This document shows, piece after piece, positions 11,068 to 33,120 of a stretch of 64,000 nt of DNA. Position numbers and translations under genes: made by a program. Under the pieces are notes generated by a model. The model saw only the letters and a program-made list of their open reading frames with translations. It searched no databases and was not told the origin of the DNA. How positions within the stretch are numbered: the first letter of the stretch is position 1; each line of letters opens with the position of its first letter. Source of the DNA: an uncultured Gammaproteobacteria bacterium (lineage in GTDB: Bacteria; Patescibacteriota; Microgenomatia; Daviesbacterales; UBA10151); contig CAZJNI010000006.1 in NCBI GenBank assembly GCA_964547465.1, positions 2,505 to 66,504 on the forward strand. The letters run 5' to 3'.

Positions 11068-11733
11068 ATGATGAAAAAAACTGCTGCTGTTTTAGCCCTA
11101 CTTACTTCAGGTTTACTTCTTACCCAAACCATTTTTGCCAGGGAAGCAACTCCATCAACAACTGCAGTTATCAGAAAAGAAGCAGTCCAACAAAGAATTG
11201 ATACAAGAAAATTGGCATTAGAGGATAAGATGGCTGCATTAAAAGAAAAAATGGCCTCCAGGACAGCAGCTTTAAAAACAAGATTACAAACTTTTAAGGA
11301 TCAGAGAAAAGCCCAGATTGCAGAAAGGGTTAATGCTACTCTTGCAAAAATAAACGAGAACCAAACCAATCAAATGTTGAAATTTTTAAATACAATGACT
11401 TCTATTTTGGATAAGCTGGAAGCAAGAGTTAATCAACCTACACCTGACATTAAGGATCCTGTGAAAGCCAAGCTTGCCATAGCAGATGCCAGAATAACTA
11501 TCGCATCAGCTTCAGCAGCAGTTACTACCCAAGCTCAAAATGATTATCCAATTGAGGCTACATCAGAGGCTAAAATCAGACAGGAAGCACAAGATGCCAG
11601 GAATAATTTGCACACAGATTTGTTAGCTGTCAGGAAATTAGTGATTGATGCAAAACAGGCAGTTGCAAATGCCATCAGGATTGCCAAGTCAGGACCGCCT
11701 ATAAAGGAGGGAACAGCCAGTGGACAACAGTAA
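11068..11733 (+). CDS. Secreted coiled-coil protein (hypothetical)
   Basis: Signal peptide MMKKTAAVLALLTSGLLLTQTIFA; A/K/Q-rich heptad-like sequence. Confidence 0.4.
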   Translation: MMKKTAAVLALLTSGLLLTQTIFAREATPSTTAVIRKEAVQQRIDTRKLALEDKMAALKEKMASRTAALKTRLQTFKDQRKAQIAERVNATLAKINENQTNQMLKFLNTMTSILDKLEARVNQPTPDIKDPVKAKLAIADARITIASASAAVTTQAQNDYPIEATSEAKIRQEAQDARNNLHTDLLAVRKLVIDAKQAVANAIRIAKSGPPIKEGTASGQQ

Positions 11734-12992: not shown

Positions 12993-13829
12993 ATGAATCA
13001 AGAAGCAGCGCAGGTAACTAAAATAGCTATCTTTCGAAATAGGAAAATAAGGAAAACTATTCATAAAAATGAATGGTGGTTTGTAATTGTTGATGTTGTG
13101 GCTGCTTTAACTGATTCAGTTCAGCCGGATGGCTATATAAAAGATATGCGAAGACGTGATCCGGAACTTTCTAAAGGGTGGGGGCAAATTGCCACCCCCC
13201 TTGCAGTTCAAACATCAGGTGGTAGGCAAAAATTAAATTGTGCCAACACAGAAAGTATATTTAGGATTATCCAATCTATACCTTCTCCTAAAGCAGAGCC
13301 TTTTAAATTATGGTTAGCTAAAGTTGGGTATGAAAGGGTGCAGGAGATAGAAGATCCTGAGTTAGCCCAAAAAAGAGCCAGGGCACTCTACAAGGCAAAA
13401 GGGTATCCCGAGGATTGGATAGAAAGACGAATGCGTTCTATTGCCATTAGGGAAGAATTGACCGATGAGTGGCAAAAACACGGTGTAGAACTGGCAAAAG
13501 AGTATGAAATACTAACTGCCGAGATATCTAAAGCCACTTTTGGTGTTACACCATCTGAATATAAGAAAATAAAAGGACTTAAACGTCAAAATCTGCGTGA
13601 TCATATGAGTGATTTGGAACTTTTGTTTTCCCAACTTGGCGAGGCAGCCACCACAGAAATTACCAAAACAGAACACCCTAGAGGGTTTGAGAGAAATAAA
13701 CAAGTCTCAAAGCGTGGTGGTAAAATTGCCGGAGATGCCAGATCTAATTTAGAGAAGGAAACTGGCAGGAAAGTAATAACTTCACAAAATTATTTGCCGA
13801 AGAAGAGAGGTAAAAGGCTACTAAAATAA
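12993..13829 (+). CDS. Bro-N / KilA-N domain protein (phage-associated antirepressor-like)
   Basis: N-terminus FRNRKIRKTIHKNEWWFVIVDVVAALT matches the Bro-N core (R..DGE.WF.AKDVA.AL). Confidence 0.55.
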   Translation: MNQEAAQVTKIAIFRNRKIRKTIHKNEWWFVIVDVVAALTDSVQPDGYIKDMRRRDPELSKGWGQIATPLAVQTSGGRQKLNCANTESIFRIIQSIPSPKAEPFKLWLAKVGYERVQEIEDPELAQKRARALYKAKGYPEDWIERRMRSIAIREELTDEWQKHGVELAKEYEILTAEISKATFGVTPSEYKKIKGLKRQNLRDHMSDLELLFSQLGEAATTEITKTEHPRGFERNKQVSKRGGKIAGDARSNLEKETGRKVITSQNYLPKKRGKRLLK

Positions 13830-13885
13830 AGGGTTATTTACAGAAGTAACAACGATTAGATTTTAGCGAAATTTAAAGACTTTCT

Positions 13886-13935
13886 GAAGCTAAAATCCAC
13901 GAGTTCGATAAAATTTTTATGGAGCCCCTGACGAG
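13886..13935. repeat. Degenerate cassette-boundary repeat (gaagctaaaa..agttcgataaaatt + tRNA-3'-like tggagc...)
   Basis: Similar to 15457-15537; see the tRNA-Gly array finding. Confidence 0.4.
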
Positions 13936-14161
13936 ATCTTAGCCAGACTGCCAGGATTCGTTCAAGAGTTTAGCTCAAATCCTATTTTACCAGATTTTTT
14001 GTATGAATTACAGCCAAAATTAGCCTCAAAAACTGACAGATTGGCCTAGAGTTTTTTCTTTCTATTGCCTCTTATCTATTTTTTCTATTGTTGCGAAGTC
14101 ATTTTTCATGCATAATTATGCATAGTAAAAATCTGAAGAGTATTTACTGAAAAATTAATAT

Positions 14162-15388
14162 ATGAATGATAAAACAGTATATGTACTAGGTGCAGGGTTT
14201 AATCAATTTCTTGAAGATTTTGATGGCACAACACCTCCACTAGCCAGAGATTTCTTTAAAAAAGCCTTTAGTAAACGTAAATTTAATGAGCAAATATATC
14301 TTAACCAAATTAAGGACTTACTGGATTACATAGAACAATATTGGCATCTTGACTTATCAGATCTCAGAAAGGAAGACGTTGATCTTGAAGAAATCTTTAC
14401 CTTAATACAGCTACAAGTTGAAAAGGCAAAGTCAAAAAGAGACTATAAAGAACTAAAAAGACTAATTGAGGTCAGCTTTAAACTTGAGTCTTTCTTTTCA
14501 GAGTTTTTATCAGATTTCGTACCGATAAATCCTCGAAGACCTAGAGGATATTCTTATCTAGTAAAATTCGGAAAATTATTATTGCAGCGTCAACCGACAA
14601 TTATTACTTTCAACTACGATACTTTGCTAGAAGAGGGTATTGCATCAGCTTCTGGGGTTACAAATCCTCCTCCTTCTTACCTAACTTTACATCAAAACAC
14701 TTATAAGAAAAGCGAATTGCCTTCATCTATCCTTAAATATTCACATCATAACTGGAATTCTATACTATCTTATGGTTTCAAATTTGACTATGTTCAACTT
14801 CCTCAGGCTGGCCTAACCCAAATCGTTAGTCTGAAACAATATTATGGTGATCAACTTAACAAGCTTTATAAAATGGAAATATTAAAACTCCACGGTTCCC
14901 TAAACTGGATGGAAGTCGCTGGACCGCTAGACAGGAACGCTTGGAGCAACAAGGACCATTTTAGTTGGAAAGATTTCCCAGCAGAGATTCAAAGGAAACA
15001 AGGAGTTATTTATTATCGTGGACATTGGCATTTCGGTAGCCATCCCTTACTTAGTACGTGGTTTCTGAGACCAAAAATCATTACACCTGTTCTCTATAAA
15101 GACTCCTTTTATAATAGACATCCTTTTCCAGACTTATGGAAGAAAGCTTTGCATGCGCTAAAGCAATGCAAACGTTTAATAATTATTGGATATTCTTTCC
15201 CCCAGACAGATTTCTCCACCAAAATGCTTTTTTTAGAGGCATTTTCAGAGAATTTACTAGAAGAGTTAGTACTGGTAAATCCTGATGAATCTGGTGCTGT
15301 TGGGAAAATAGCCAAAAAATTAACACACTTTTCAAAGCCTATTTTCTACAAATCTGCACAAGACTATATACGAAGTCTGGCGTTGTAA
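14162..15388 (+). CDS. SIR2-like (sirtuin/SIR2_2 family) protein, standalone
   Basis: 408 aa. N-terminal VYVLGAGFNQF glycine loop, catalytic-His motif ILKLHGSLNW (sirtuin LHGS), C-terminal IIIGYSFPQTDF (SIR2_2 iGyS..D block). Confidence 0.6.
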   Translation: MNDKTVYVLGAGFNQFLEDFDGTTPPLARDFFKKAFSKRKFNEQIYLNQIKDLLDYIEQYWHLDLSDLRKEDVDLEEIFTLIQLQVEKAKSKRDYKELKRLIEVSFKLESFFSEFLSDFVPINPRRPRGYSYLVKFGKLLLQRQPTIITFNYDTLLEEGIASASGVTNPPPSYLTLHQNTYKKSELPSSILKYSHHNWNSILSYGFKFDYVQLPQAGLTQIVSLKQYYGDQLNKLYKMEILKLHGSLNWMEVAGPLDRNAWSNKDHFSWKDFPAEIQRKQGVIYYRGHWHFGSHPLLSTWFLRPKIITPVLYKDSFYNRHPFPDLWKKALHALKQCKRLIIIGYSFPQTDFSTKMLFLEAFSENLLEELVLVNPDESGAVGKIAKKLTHFSKPIFYKSAQDYIRSLAL

Positions 15389-15498
15389 CCTTCCTCATTC
15401 TTTGAGGTTCGATTCCCCTTAGGGTATAAGGTTATAGGATCGAATTTTGACTAATTTTATCAACTTTCCGAAGCTAAAACTTGTCAGTTCGATAAAAT

Positions 15499-15537
15499 TC
15501 GTCTGAGGCGGGAGACGCAAATTATTCCGAACTCTTT
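15499..15537. repeat. Partial copy of the tRNA-Gly(TCC) 3' end/trailer (cassette boundary)
   Basis: gtctgaggcgggagacgcaaattattccgaactcttt resembles 16059-16100 and the tRNA 3' region at 16771-16790. Confidence 0.5.
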
Positions 15538-15655
15538 GACTGTTTCATTAATAGAATTTAATAAATTCATGCACATGTATCAAGCTGTGAAAGAACAATA
15601 AAGCTATGAAATTGTTTAAGTTCAATTTCCGACAGAATTATTGTACACTTAACTA

Positions 15656-16045
15656 GTGAATAAAAAGAACCTATCTTTAAAAACATACATAAAAGTTATG
15701 TTCAGTTGGATTTTATTTCAGATGGTAATTTTTTTAATCGACATTTCTCTTTATCGAATCGTAGATTATAGCTCATATTTCCATTATATTTGGTCTTTAC
15801 GAATATTATTATTTGCTGTTCTCTTAGGTTTCATTTATAAAAAAGAGAATATCATTTGGGCCAATATTGCTTCTTGGATTGCCATACCCTTATTCTATAT
15901 TACCCTACCATATATTTTGAGAATTTCTAGTGAATCAGTATATGGACCCATATTAATTTTGGGGATTTTTGGTCAAATAGCAGCTATTACGGGAACCCTA
16001 ATAGCAATTTTATTAAGGAAATTAATGATTAATGCTAAACTATGA
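15656..16045 (+). CDS. Small polytopic membrane protein (hypothetical)
   Basis: 129 aa with 3-4 hydrophobic helices. Confidence 0.4.
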   Translation: MNKKNLSLKTYIKVMFSWILFQMVIFLIDISLYRIVDYSSYFHYIWSLRILLFAVLLGFIYKKENIIWANIASWIAIPLFYITLPYILRISSESVYGPILILGIFGQIAAITGTLIAILLRKLMINAKL

Positions 16046-16058
16046 ACTTTACTGCAAC

Positions 16059-16100
16059 TGCCCCGTCTGGAGCGGGAGATGCAAATTATCCCGAACTCTT
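16059..16100. repeat. Partial copy of the tRNA-Gly(TCC) 3' end + trailer
   Basis: ctgccccgtctggagcggga is identical over 20 nt to 16771-16790, which spans the real tRNA 3' end. Confidence 0.6.
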
Positions 16101-16206
16101 TTTTCTACAGATCTTAATCCATTTTAGAAGGTTAATGGAAGCTTACCAATCTCAAGTGGATGAAAATGAGCTTGATTCTTTACCAATTACCTGATATTTT
16201 TTTCTT

Positions 16207-16713
16207 ATGAGGGTTAATTACTTAGGAAAGAAAATAAGATTAGCACTTAAGAAAGCATCCACAATTGAAGACGTGCTTGATATTACGAGGCTACTTATAA
16301 CTCAGATTAAAATTGAAGATCCCAAAGCAAAAATTGGCTATGTTTCTGGTAAGGTTACTGCTGATGGAAAAGACAGAATTCCCCATAATCTGAAAAGAAT
16401 GCATAAATTTACGAGAAAACTTAAAGAAATTCACGGAGAACAAATCTTTTCTGCAGCTGATATTTTTAGTGATATCGTCTACTGGAAAATAAATCTTCCT
16501 AGACCAATACACGAAAAGGATTTTTATAATTTTTGGAGAAAAATTGTAAGTAGTGGGGTAACTGATATTTATATGACCCCAGAATGGGAAAGATCTCATG
16601 GAGCTAAAGATGAACATAAGATAGCAAAAACATTAAATATTAATATTCATTATATAGTTTTTGAAGAGACGGGAATCGAACTCCAGATTGAACCTAAAGT
16701 TAGAAGGAGATAG
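16207..16713 (+). CDS. Hypothetical protein (possibly Rossmann-like, nucleoside 2-deoxyribosyltransferase/DUF4406-like)
   Basis: 168 aa; IGYVSGKVTADG and TPEWERSHGAKDE segments. Assignment is weak. Confidence 0.35.
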   Translation: MRVNYLGKKIRLALKKASTIEDVLDITRLLITQIKIEDPKAKIGYVSGKVTADGKDRIPHNLKRMHKFTRKLKEIHGEQIFSAADIFSDIVYWKINLPRPIHEKDFYNFWRKIVSSGVTDIYMTPEWERSHGAKDEHKIAKTLNINIHYIVFEETGIELQIEPKVRRR

Positions 16714-16778
16714 GAGAATTCAATGAAATTAATACTATTTCAGGAAAAATTTGAGGCTAGCTACTTAGCTGCCCCGTC

Positions 16779-16853
16779 TGGAGCGGGATAGGGGAATCGG
16801 ACCCCTTACGTCCACTTTGGAAAAGTGGCATTCTACCGGTGAATTAATCCCGC
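16779..16853 (-). tRNA. tRNA-Gly(TCC), CCA encoded
   Basis: GCGGGAT acceptor, anticodon loop TTTCCAA, T-arm AGGGG-TCCGATT-CCCCT, 3' ATCCCGC-T-CCA. 75 nt. Confidence 0.8.
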
Positions 16854-16945: not shown

Positions 16946-17545
16946 TTAAACTTTTTGAGTTGCTGTCCCAAGTATCTCTAGCTGTTCAGACAAATCAGAT
17001 AACTGATATTTGGCAAGATCAATACCGTTTTTTTGAGCAATTACCAATCCTTGGATAATTTTTCTGGCCCTGACTGCATCTTTAGTACTTAAATATCCTA
17101 TATCTACAGAATTTTCAGTAAATCCTACATCCACAATTTTCAGGGTAGAAAAAAGTAAGCCAGTCTCAACCACCACATCTGATACATCCTTAATATATAC
17201 ACTATGAATATGGCTGGAAAAGAAAAAATACCTATAAATAATATTTACTTTATTTATGTCAACCACCACCTCATCCGGAAAAGGATTCAAGGGGATGATA
17301 GTTCTTATTTTGATAAGTGGTTTTTGCGAATTTTCCACTAGATCATTAAGCTTTTCTGTATCAGTTACTTTCTCATCAGGAGGACTATGATTAGGCGGAT
17401 CTAGATTCTTTCTCAAAATATCTCCTTCAGTTACTTCACGATCTAAAATAAGCCTTCTATAAGGTAAGCTTAAATATTTGGCCTGAAAACCAGTTCTTAG
17501 GTGTTGATCTTTCTCCTCAAGTTGTCCGTCTGTTTGAGGTATCAT
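16946..17545 (-). CDS. Hypothetical protein
   Basis: 199-aa ORF; no recognisable motifs. Confidence 0.4.
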   Translation of the reverse strand: MIPQTDGQLEEKDQHLRTGFQAKYLSLPYRRLILDREVTEGDILRKNLDPPNHSPPDEKVTDTEKLNDLVENSQKPLIKIRTIIPLNPFPDEVVVDINKVNIIYRYFFFSSHIHSVYIKDVSDVVVETGLLFSTLKIVDVGFTENSVDIGYLSTKDAVRARKIIQGLVIAQKNGIDLAKYQLSDLSEQLEILGTATQKV

Positions 17546-33045: not shown

Positions 33046-33120
33046 TGGAGCGGCGGACCGGATTTGGACCGGCGACCTCCTACTTGGCAAGCAGGCATTC
33101 TACCACTGAACTACCGCCGC
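33046..33120 (-). tRNA. tRNA-Gly(GCC), CCA encoded
   Basis: GCGGCGG acceptor, anticodon loop TTGCCAA, T-loop TCCAAAT, 3' CCGCCGC-T-CCA. Confidence 0.8.

Follow-up and report, generated by a model that had tools for sequence, protein, structure and literature searches.

The window, that is, the whole 64-kb stretch of DNA that was analysed, contains a tRNA-Gly(TCC) gene with an encoded CCA end on the minus strand at 16779-16853 (ARAGORN; Rfam RF00005, 56.2 bits), which is the integration target at this locus; the host is a Candidatus Daviesbacteria-like (CPR) bacterium. The four plus-strand ORFs listed in the first-pass annotation are as stated, and the nearest to the tRNA (16207-16713), then called unknown, encodes a 168-aa DUF4406 or nucleoside 2-deoxyribosyltransferase-like protein (Pfam PF14359, E=8.7e-7; PHROG 355, E=2e-7), the cargo of remnant E1. 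The cargo of remnant E2 (15656-16045) is a small membrane protein that has four hydrophobic segments and matches no family, and that of remnant E3 (14162-15388) is a 408-aa SIR2_2-like protein (Pfam PF13289, 27.9 bits) with the motifs GAGFN, TFNYD and KLHGS, which matches PADLOC SIR2 models with E values down to 7e-9 and for which no PDB relative was found by sequence. A 278-aa Bro-N protein lies at the distal end (12993-13829; Pfam Bro-N, E=3e-11; PADLOC PDC-S13, E=6e-114; PHROG 15286, E=1e-88). Homologs of this protein adjoin fragments of an integrase gene, Int(C), in other loci (86% identity in L120, 70% in L106/L116 and 49% in L138/L160), no outer junction is detectable beyond it, and it is probably the cargo of a yet older remnant. 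The suggestion that these genes act in defence holds as a candidate label only, given that the SIR2 matches are weak and PDC-S13 is itself a candidate family; the cargo of homologous sites elsewhere is mixed. The GC content of the island is 0.335-0.348 compared to 0.376 for the window.

Repeats of the tRNA end do delimit these units, as had been proposed. The sequence CTGCCCCGTCTGGAGCGGGA occurs exactly at two sites in the window, 16769-16788 and 16058-16077; shuffling gives 0.02 expected matches at up to three mismatches, and 0 of 100 shuffles reached two. The first site is the attL-side core, composed of the 10 terminal nucleotides of the tRNA and 10 nucleotides of trailer, and the second is the attR1 core (copy A), an exact 20-nt copy. 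A degenerate copy B forms the attR2 core (15500-15513, CGTCTGAGGCGGGA), which matches the tRNA end and trailer at 12 of 14 positions, and its resemblance to copy A extends over 38 nt (15500-15537 versus 16064-16101, 89% identity). Copy A had been placed at 16059-16100, a few bases away from its corrected position at 16058-16101. The copies had also been described as the tRNA end plus about 10 nt of trailer; the copies themselves stand, but the ~24 nt common to A and B past the core belong to the coding sequence of the integrase gene, which runs along the other strand, and their reading as tRNA trailer was rejected.

What lies beside the tRNA-end copies, antisense to the tRNA, is coding sequence from the 3' end of a gene for a large serine recombinase (LSR). 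The encoded peptide, GAG followed by DANYxELxLxxxLxHFxKLMEAYQ.., corresponds to the final ~35-40 codons of the integrase gene, and the codons for its Gly-Ala-Gly are complementary to the tRNA end TCCCGCTCC. Int(C)1 (16069-16194, plus strand, inside the ORF 16042-16194) is an intact orphan tail, GAGDANYPELFFLQILIHFRRLMEAYQSQVDENELDSLPIT up to its stop codon, which matches a profile built from metagenomic Int(C) fragments with E=2e-17. Int(C)2 (15505-15601, plus strand; E=2e-4 with the same profile) is a frameshifted pseudogene of the tail, which reads EAGDANYSELF.. and then, in the next frame, ..SLIEFNKFMHMYQAVKEQ up to a stop codon. The repeats in the window are attR-type junctions, in which a tRNA-end core is fused to an LSR C-terminal fragment.

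Scanning metagenomes with the junction 19-mer gave 73 loci, among them 51 non-duplicate homologs with in-frame GAGDANY...MEAYQ. Orphan fragments are found 0.4-5 kb 3' of tRNA-Gly in dozens of metagenomic loci, some of them in tandem as in the window (three copies in L126; two each in L162, L119 and L122). The nearest tRNA is an antisense tRNA-Gly, with anticodon TCC, GCC or CCC, in all 22 Int(C) cases having a tRNA on the expected side, and among the 10 loci in which at least 5.5 kb is available, 9 follow this rule. Codon-position entropy in the tail (0.96/0.63/1.27) has a coding signature, and 27% of the codon differences in the tail frame are synonymous, versus 8-19% in the five other frames. 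ORFs upstream of the tail are nearly all short, the protein P0001 of L128/L166 being the exception.

P0001 is an intact 549-aa recombinase with Resolvase and Recombinase domains, and it ends in the same tail as Int(C)1. It is the only intact integrase seen with the canonical tail, in two assemblies, and could be a tandem-junction hybrid instead of the free attP form. The L019 recombinase and P0002, P0005, P0006, P0008, P0009 and P0012 align as far as ..L and GAG, after which they continue into a tRNA-antisense peptide, and the integrase ORF overlaps tRNA-Gly(TCC) in L164 and tRNA-Gly(GCC) in L165. L019, L164 and L165 each have a full integrase at exactly the position corresponding to the window's, reading into tRNA-Gly. 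Taken together, the tail on P0001 and the ORFs reading into the tRNA in these three loci imply that the integrase ORF contains attP and that the gene is split by integration. The N-terminal product, Int(N), retains every recognised domain, the detached part being the final ~6% of the protein, and Int(N) may be active after splitting.

At the corresponding position in the window, that of the Int(N) 3' end of integrated relatives, direct reading of the sequence gives a short plus-strand ORF (16723-16791; MKLILFQEKFEASYLAAPSGAG up to its stop codon) that runs into the tRNA antisense strand. No integrase homology is left upstream, and the ..AAPS that precedes GAG just ahead of the core has no homology to known Int(N) ends; a tblastn match of the L019 recombinase C-terminus to 16732-16839 is mainly owing to the tRNA itself. 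The earlier statement that no integrase is present is borne out by local profile screening of ORFs of at least 60 aa across the 64 kb, in which neither a serine nor an Xer-like tyrosine recombinase was found, the tyrosine profile being made from Xer-like sequences only, such that a very divergent integrase could escape it.

A 56-nt companion repeat, D2, is present in two copies (13860-13915 and 15444-15499, 75% identity); the companion motif had been noticed before, and its position of 15457-15498 is corrected to 15470-15499. D2 copy B is a conserved non-coding unit that retains 28 of 30 bases at the syntenic junction of L005 and is also found in L017. We infer that D2 is tRNA-trailer-like flank sequence; no copy was observed right beside an unoccupied tRNA-Gly. 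Junction C (attR3, 13860-13925), which joins D2 copy C to a residual core TGGAGC (13920-13925), is the oldest junction still recognisable. The weaker third copy reported at this place is upheld as a junction by the companion motif, the 56-nt repeat and homologous junctions in L005 and L017, but not by its core, whose 6 tRNA-like nucleotides are not above chance. A type-2 orphan C-terminal ORF fragment (13921-14049, plus strand; GAPDEILARLPGFVQEF...LA and a stop codon) is placed relative to TGGAGC and D2 as Int(C) is. Its homologs are weak (E=0.025 in L005; E~9, not significant, in L017), no full-length parent gene was found, and its sequence is possibly the end of a different integrase lineage.

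The order SIMPL, tRNA-Gly, a variable interval, beta-lactamase/o104/o221 and tRNA-Arg forms a conserved backbone in related loci, with an interval past tRNA-Gly of 0.4 to >10 kb, and the four cargo genes are present in 0 of 80 loci around SIMPL homologs, the best relative available having 73% SIMPL identity. In L013/L130, a 1.27-kb single-gene unit lies between the tRNA and a copy of its end plus trailer, beside a decayed tail. Foreign cargo, attR-type junctions, integrase-bearing relatives and tRNA-Gly-linked orphan tails thus support the earlier proposal of serial site-specific integration at a hotspot that has since decayed.

We regard it as unlikely that the cassettes are still alive, as integrase-less, CIME-like and cis-mobilisable units of an active shuffling hotspot on which a cognate serine integrase would act in trans, its gene lying elsewhere in the genome or on an incoming element. 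In favour of this reading, a recent event is suggested by attL and attR1 cores that do not differ over their 20 nt and by the uninterrupted Int(C)1 ORF; same-species short-read contigs from two samples also both end just outside D2 copy B, at 15436/15438, although these ends may reflect coverage. Against it, the cores of B (12/14) and C (6 nt) have degenerated, and neither an alternative junction, an empty site nor a circle was observed. Excision by LSRs, attL x attR, normally also requires a directionality factor, which is not evident here, and no integrase was detected within the 64 kb. There are precedents in that integrase-less islands between att repeats at Dehalococcoides ssrA are possibly mobilisable (PMC3146451) and a related incoming integrase can excise archaeal split-integrase elements (PMC8371274). 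It is very improbable, and already largely refuted, that the repeats are promoter, terminator or small RNA elements, or small functional peptides, whose likeness to the tRNA end is incidental. D2 does have a hairpin (TTTTAGC..GCTAAAA), though a modest one (z=-1.6 to -2.0), and is kept at a syntenic place in L005 and L017, and databases list 55 Int(C)-like mini-ORFs, predicted by gene callers, as hypothetical proteins. Nevertheless, there are 0 Rfam family matches, copy A folds at shuffle level (z=-0.3), and the strict tRNA-Gly association and orientation are left unexplained; an intact serine recombinase ends, in frame, in this peptide, whose conserved frame frequently has no start codon, the upstream ORF being 0-10 codons in many loci. 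Least probable of all is that the units form an integron-like or CALIN cassette array, or that tRNA-Gly pseudogene fragments were duplicated locally: the co-oriented single-gene units of 0.5-1.6 kb with short repeats between them and no integrase nearby have that appearance, but the repeats are serine-integrase coding remnants, alike in primary sequence, unlike attC-type imperfect palindromes, and ordinary in single-strand structure, no tyrosine recombinase was found among window ORFs with the Xer-like profile, the repeats fail to align with the tRNA past its last 10 nt and are therefore not tRNA duplicates, and Infernal gave no pseudo-tRNA at E<=1.

The Dehalococcoides ssrA islands are the closest known system, and the self-splitting is like that of archaeal 'suicidal' integrases. 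The former lie in tandem downstream of a small structured-RNA gene, whose 3' end recurs at their boundaries as ~20-bp direct repeats; adjoining attL is a CcrB-like serine recombinase of ~540 aa, the 3' end of its ORF always running across attL to a stop codon outside the island, an additional conserved motif lies beside the distal repeats, many islands lack an integration module, and accretion was proposed (McMurdie et al. 2011, PMC3146451). RNA-gene-anchored tandem units, 3'-end repeats, recombinase ORF overlap, an extra motif, integrase-less units and accretion are shared with the present system. The target here, however, is tRNA-Gly (three isoacceptors) rather than tmRNA, CPR bacteria serve as hosts, a second recombinase resembling DsiA was not seen, and the window units (0.5-1.6 kb, all integrase-less) are far smaller. 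In addition, the peptide encoded beyond the crossover here (~35 aa) is conserved and subject to purifying selection, whereas the overlapping end in Dehalococcoides has been considered divergent and probably non-functional. Archaeal SSV-type integrases carry the site inside the gene, so that tRNA integration leaves Int(N) and Int(C) at the element ends, and orphan fragments pile up beside tRNA genes ('gene capture'); they are tyrosine recombinases (Phage_integr_3) reported to be exclusive to Archaea (PMC8371274). The site in the integrase gene, the split on tRNA integration and the orphan fragments are common to both, but the enzyme here is a serine recombinase in Bacteria, and it loses its final ~6% whereas the archaeal split separates the catalytic domain. 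Prochlorococcus tycheposons and the tandem accretion/CIMEs of Streptococcus are also tRNA hotspots with tandem related elements, partial tRNA copies as boundaries and common degraded integrase-less cargo remnants, and they employ tyrosine recombinases whose genes are not split on integration. Our array shares their tRNA anchoring, tandem pile-up, partial tRNA boundaries and integrase-less remnants, and differs in its serine recombinase gene split by integration. Integron arrays and CALINs likewise have small, co-oriented, mostly single-gene units, short site-like repeats and no integrase nearby, but their sites are attC hairpins instead of tRNA-end/integrase-tail junctions, their recombinase is the IntI tyrosine enzyme instead of a serine recombinase, and their anchor is attI instead of a tRNA gene.

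Returning to serial integration, at least three, and probably four, integrative elements would have entered the 3.8 kb 3' of tRNA-Gly(TCC) successively, each new element at the tRNA 3' end displacing the older ones outward. They would belong to a family of CPR (Microgenomates/Daviesbacteria-type) bacteria with a ~550-aa LSR, whose un-split gene would carry the crossover site GGAGCGGGA, with Gly-Ala-Gly codons complementary to the tRNA-Gly end, ~35 codons ahead of the stop. Because this site lies inside the ORF, integration would split the integrase gene: Int(N), the first ~510 codons, would remain beside the tRNA and read into its antisense strand, and the Int(C) tail would go to the far junction, fused to the displaced tRNA-end copy. 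In the window, every Int(N) and the remainder of each element would have been deleted, leaving three junctions and one co-oriented cargo gene per unit. Decay grows with distance from the tRNA, from A (20/20 core, intact tail) through B (12/14, frameshifted) to C, the farthest (6-nt core, different tail type). The repeats, their nature as integrase tails, the link to tRNA-Gly, both the intact and the integrated form of the gene and the foreign origin of the cargo are shown, as is the lack of a detected recombinase in the window; the order of insertion, the deletions, the present immobility and the function of the cargo we infer. The 3' side of tRNA-Gly is probably a graveyard of serial integrations, each of which split its own LSR gene.

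The tRNA-Gly(TCC) gene called in the first-pass annotation at 16779-16853 on the minus strand is genuine and functional, being recovered by both ARAGORN and Rfam. A 20-mer core (CTGCCCCGTCTGGAGCGGGA), which comprises the last 10 nt of the tRNA and 10 nt of trailer (16769-16788), has only one other exact occurrence in the 64 kb, at 16058-16077, and shuffled sequences give a chance expectation of 0.02 matches even when three mismatches are allowed. That annotation had also described three copies of the tRNA 3' end; the sites are real, although their coordinates were offset by a few bases, and the repeats are direct, in the tRNA orientation, and distal to the tRNA 3' end. Copy A retains the core exactly (20/20) and copy B is degenerate (12/14 core positions; 15500-15537 is 89% identical to 16064-16101 over 38 nt), but only 6 nt of copy C survive (TGGAGC, 13920-13925). 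The companion motif belongs to a 56-nt repeat, D2 (TACGATTTTTATCGAACT), present at 13860-13915 and 15444-15499 with 75% identity between the two. We also considered whether the 24-nt arm shared by copies A and B might be a tRNA pseudogene or tRNA-like RNA; Infernal finds nothing at E<=1, and the arm has neither an acceptor 5' strand nor a T stem. Separately, GGTTCGATTCCCCT at 15405-15418, directly past the stop codon of the SIR2-like gene, is an inverted copy of the tRNA-Gly T arm (13/14). The open reading frames are those originally claimed, encoding Bro-N (12993-13829), SIR2_2-like (14162-15388), and membrane (15656-16045) proteins, together with a product (16207-16713) then listed as of unknown function; this last is a DUF4406 protein, and the membrane protein is a four-segment hydrophobic protein.

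The same junction sequences occur elsewhere. The arm common to copies A and B is also found about 1 kb 3' of tRNA-Gly in the related locus L020, and the D2 motif lies at the syntenic junction of loci L005 (28/30 bases) and L017. In L013, a 1.27-kb single-gene unit is bounded by ~44-nt repeats of the tRNA end plus trailer, the distal copy of which is preceded by the same AATTTGCGTCTCCCGCTCC junction. Scanning metagenomes with the junction (GGAGCGGGAGAYGCAAATT) gave 73 loci, 51 of which, after removal of duplicates, are homologous well beyond the pattern itself. No conserved ORF runs across these loci in the tRNA orientation, where several of them contain stop codons and long ORFs are lacking; the coding strand is the opposite one. 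There, all loci encode GAGDANY(F/S)ELxLxxxLxHFxKLMEAYQ, and the frame closes no more than about 10 codons later. Thirty-six distinct copies of this tail align without indels over 27 codons, with entropies of 0.96/0.63/1.27 at the three codon positions, the third being the most variable, and of the codon differences in the tail frame 27% are synonymous, as against 8-19% in the other five. Because the ORF upstream of the GAG motif is nearly always very short, the fragments are orphan C-terminal pieces, denoted Int(C). A profile search of 5.8 billion proteins returned 55 further Int(C) matches, all of them "hypothetical proteins" of 33-86 aa and some from genomes labeled Daviesbacteria or Patescibacteria, with zero full-length matches and no further intact integrase. 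Orphan tails thus come from 51 metagenomic loci, duplicates removed, and from 55 mini-ORFs in databases, two sets that may overlap. Three further arrangements were seen at such sites. At a contig end in L159 (1905-1994), two inverted Int(C)/core copies 52 nt apart form a long palindrome. In L005 (12615-13535, minus strand), an Int(C)-like frame (GAPDENYYESF..HFTKLMEAH..) has lost its stop and continues into a 279-aa ORF, possibly a gene fusion at an old junction. In L017 (10963-10978) and L020 (4541-4556), the 3' end of tRNA-Gly recurs as an exact 16-nt copy at a distance of only 115-135 nt downstream, enclosing a terminator-like hairpin; this may be a minimal insertion, or else a scar left by excision or deletion. 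In addition, CCCCTTAGG is shared with L020, where it stands immediately ahead of the Int(C) remnant.

In a single locus, L128 (independently yielded by a k=141 assembly as L166/P0001), the tail frame extends more than 510 codons upstream as a large serine recombinase (LSR) with Resolvase and Recombinase domains and a PHROG integrase match (E=2e-44); a PDB sequence search with P0001 found nothing. This only intact tail-bearing integrase might be a tandem-junction hybrid. The same domain set, taken with or without the Zn ribbon, is present in the 556-aa recombinase of L019, which abuts tRNA-Gly, aligns end to end with P0001 (E=5e-66) through ..L-G-A-G, and past this point consists of tRNA-antisense peptide (EGSRTPYVHFGKVAFYR). 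The C-termini of the related recombinases P0002, P0005, P0006, P0008, P0009, and P0012 are likewise tRNA-antisense, and the integrase ORF physically overlaps tRNA-Gly(TCC) in L164 and tRNA-Gly(GCC) in L165. Moreover, the tRNA-Gly end TCCCGCTCC common to all three isoacceptors has the GAG codons (GGAGCGGGA) as its complement. The attachment site is therefore internal to the integrase ORF, some 35 codons before the stop, and integration splits the gene. The complete integrated elements in L164 and L165 measure at least 9-10 kb and carry DUF6291 and DnaB_C-like genes. The alternative tail of the recombinase P0004 has no detectable homology to Int(C). Scans of viral contigs with the arm, D2, the junction 19-mer, and P0001 gave chance coding matches or nothing.

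The geometry is repeated at other tRNA genes into which related LSRs read, one LSR adjoining tRNA-Leu(GAG) (11340-11429) in L150 (11497-12939, minus strand) and one lying over tRNA-Leu(AAG) (13742-13824) in L165 (12087-13832). By a rough motif count, 27 of the 60 long homologs in the set P0001-P0120 have tRNA-antisense-like ends (DSNQRP, GFEP, GIEP, and similar), and running into a tRNA gene may be general for this LSR clade. In L166 (3040-3110), and just after Int(C) in L125, L135, L152, and L157, a conserved gene starting M..LFDE(K/N)(T/S)FYKAF either overlaps the integrase stop or begins right behind it; in the element, this gene probably comes next after the integrase.

Where a tRNA gene is present on the expected side of Int(C), the nearest one is an antisense tRNA-Gly (TCC, GCC, or CCC) in 22/22 cases, at distances of 0.4-5.4 kb, and the rule holds for nine of the ten loci in which that side extends for 5.5 kb or more. 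Int(C) also occurs in tandem arrays, with three copies in L126 and two each in L162, L119, and L122. Outside the window, the genes enclosed between tRNA and Int(C) are a mixed set, encoding a sigma-70 region-4 protein, DUF218, a flavin monooxygenase, an AbiEii toxin, PIN, a GH1 glycosidase, and an IS1 transposase.

Against this background the window can be read as a stack of remnants E1, E2, and E3, numbered outward from the tRNA. E1 holds the DUF4406 gene and ends in an intact Int(C) (16069-16194, profile E=2e-17) with the exact 20-nt core at 16058-16077. E2 holds the membrane protein gene, a frameshifted Int(C) (15505-15601) that reads EAGDANYSELF.. and then ..SLIEFNKFMHMYQAVKEQ* in the next frame, the 12/14 core, and D2 copy B. 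E3 holds the SIR2-like gene followed by a different, type-2 orphan C-terminal fragment (13921-14049, GAPDEILARLPGF...), TGGAGC, and D2 copy C; no parent gene was found for this fragment. The Bro-N gene, distal to E3, is absent from relatives and has homologs beside Int(C) fragments in L120 (86% identity), L106/L116 (70%), and L138/L160 (49%), and is thus probably the cargo of yet another, older remnant. Cargo genes and Int(C) pieces all share one orientation, like the genes of intact elements, and junction decay rises with distance from the tRNA, as expected if each newcomer enters at the functional tRNA and displaces older elements outward. The first-pass annotation had reported that no integrase is present, and indeed neither a serine nor an Xer-like tyrosine recombinase is detectable in the 64-kb window. 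Since L019, L164, and L165 carry an integrase gene at the tRNA-proximal position, what the window contains are remnants, none of them a complete element. We infer that the integrase bodies of its elements were deleted, that D2 is a native trailer, and that the type-2 fragment is an integrase tail. A match of the L019 integrase C-terminus to 16732-16839 was rejected as a remnant of the integrase body, the similarity lying almost wholly in the tRNA itself. The window has 13 tRNA genes, on both strands; at the second tRNA-Gly (GCC, 33046-33120) a profile search found no Int(C) remnant.

Scanning genomes with the protein of the neighboring SIMPL gene, we obtained 80 loci, the closest labeled Candidatus Daviesbacteria or other Microgenomates at no more than 73% identity. 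These share the backbone PAP2 - SIMPL - tRNA-Gly(TCC) - variable segment - beta-lactamase/o104/o221 - tRNA-Arg(TCT) - GDSL - o331 - o429, in which the variable segment ranges from ~0.4 kb (L027, where the site is almost empty) to more than 10 kb (L019) and differs in content from genome to genome. No homologs of the Bro-N, SIR2, membrane, or DUF4406 genes occur in the 80 SIMPL loci. Together with the lower GC content of the island (0.335-0.348 versus 0.376 for the window), these data indicate that the segment separating the tRNA from the beta-lactamase gene was acquired. Variation extends to the 5' flank of the tRNA, given that SIMPL directly abuts the tRNA in most relatives: a 199-aa ORF with no family match lies between them in the window (16946-17545, minus strand), with homologs only in L010 (46%), L116 (57%), and, weakly, L012. 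Six Gottesmanbacteria-type loci (L018, L022, L024, L025, L028, and L032) have no tRNA-Gly after SIMPL and instead an Xer-like tyrosine recombinase ~0-2.5 kb downstream of it; these Xer-like sequences were used solely to build a search profile. With regard to function, Bro-N matches the candidate family PDC-S13, and the TFNYD and KLHGS motifs of the SIR2-like protein are similar to catalytic motifs known from defense SIR2 proteins. PDB sequence searches with the SIR2-like and DUF4406 proteins found nothing. The SIR2-like, Bro-N/PDC-S13, and DUF4406 cargo genes are candidate defense genes.

The tRNA-end repeats, the foreign intervening DNA, and the integrase at the same position in relatives bear out the proposal of serial integration at a tRNA att site. 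It may be that the window cassettes continue to be mobilized in trans, a reading favored by the perfect core of copy A and by the break of two short-read assemblies at 15437; no alternative junction is seen, however, copies B and C are degenerate, and the array is most likely inert. Exact-protein look-ups with the window cargo returned only contigs of at most 1.6 kb collinear with the window, with breaks at 15437 and inside the tRNA, or no record, and no polymorphism is seen among these short contigs. The runs that contain this species are SRR12113383, -384, -420, and -430; in two of them, SRR12113383 and SRR12113430, its short-read contigs terminate or begin at 15436/15438, 7 nt outside D2 copy B, which could reflect a structural-variant breakpoint or a mere assembly effect, and a third stops inside the tRNA at 16808-16817. 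An account of the repeats as regulatory or structured-RNA elements fails, as they have no Rfam match and folding z-scores (-0.3 to -2.0) that are not unusual, many fragments have no start codon, and the association with tRNA-Gly is left unexplained; promoters and terminators were set aside likewise, inspection revealing no canonical spacing and the folding scores being unremarkable. Integron-type or CALIN cassettes, which are defined by attC palindromes and an IntI tyrosine integrase, are ruled out by repeat sequence, folding, and recombinase family, the repeats being coding remnants conserved in primary sequence with no unusual single-strand folding, the recombinase a serine enzyme, and Xer-like tyrosine recombinases undetected in the window.

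The closest described system is that of the Dehalococcoides ssrA genomic islands, a likeness drawn from their published description. Arranged in tandem, these islands are flanked by 20-bp repeats derived from the 3' end of tmRNA, the 3' end of their ~540-aa serine recombinase gene "always" overlaps attL, the distal repeats are accompanied by another conserved motif, and many islands have no integrase (PMC3146451). The tRNA-Gly family similarly has LSR domains in its parents (L128/P0001 and L019; only a terminal fragment in the window), an integrase ORF that crosses attL into the target RNA gene (L019, L164, L165, and the six recombinase C-termini), and tandem units, some integrase-less, with an extra conserved flank (the window, L126, L162, L119, and L122). 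It differs in its target, tRNA-Gly, in host phylum, and in the conserved, selected peptide beyond the crossover. The gene lists of L164 and L165 show no second small, DsiA/CcrA-like recombinase next to the integrase. Self-disrupting recombinases, the SSV-type "suicidal" integrases, were considered exclusive to Archaea in a 2021 review (PMC8371274). As in those, the recombination site lies inside the integrase ORF, which is split on integration (intact in P0001, fused to tRNA-antisense in the integrated forms). In contrast to the archaeal Phage_integr_3 tyrosine enzymes, in which the catalytic domain is separated, the present enzymes are serine recombinases of CPR bacteria that lose ~35 C-terminal residues. 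With just ~6% of the protein detached, the body left at the tRNA, Int(N), may well remain active. We accordingly classify the window feature as the decayed, tandemly arrayed remains of serine-integrase elements that target tRNA genes, in a variant that is new and CPR-specific, and as neither SSV-type nor an integron.

A broader proposal, to which we give somewhat less than even odds, is that self-splitting serine integrases are widespread in CPR bacteria. The conserved ~35-aa C-terminal helix would be needed for recombination or would control its direction; integration into tRNA-Gly would replace it with tRNA-antisense junk, acting as a built-in directionality switch or lock; and the trapped elements would decay into single-gene cassettes. 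Such enzymes would be the bacterial, serine-type counterpart of the archaeal tyrosine integrases. A bacterial serine integrase with its att site in its own coding region has a C-terminus that differs between the free and integrated states, and such an overlap appears earlier only in Dehalococcoides, unremarked. If the tail matters for activity, this would amount to control of LSR directionality without a separate directionality factor, which is relevant to genome-engineering tools. Knowledge of the mobile elements of CPR/Patescibacteria, and of how these bacteria gain genes, is sparse, and a tRNA-Gly followed by an orphan GAGDANY..MEAYQ tail is a searchable signature that flags earlier integrations in dozens of uncultured genomes and sets precise limits to the captured genes. 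If the proposal is true, tRNA-Gly loci would be a major site of gene capture in the reduced genomes of CPR bacteria, and the window one fossil stack among them.
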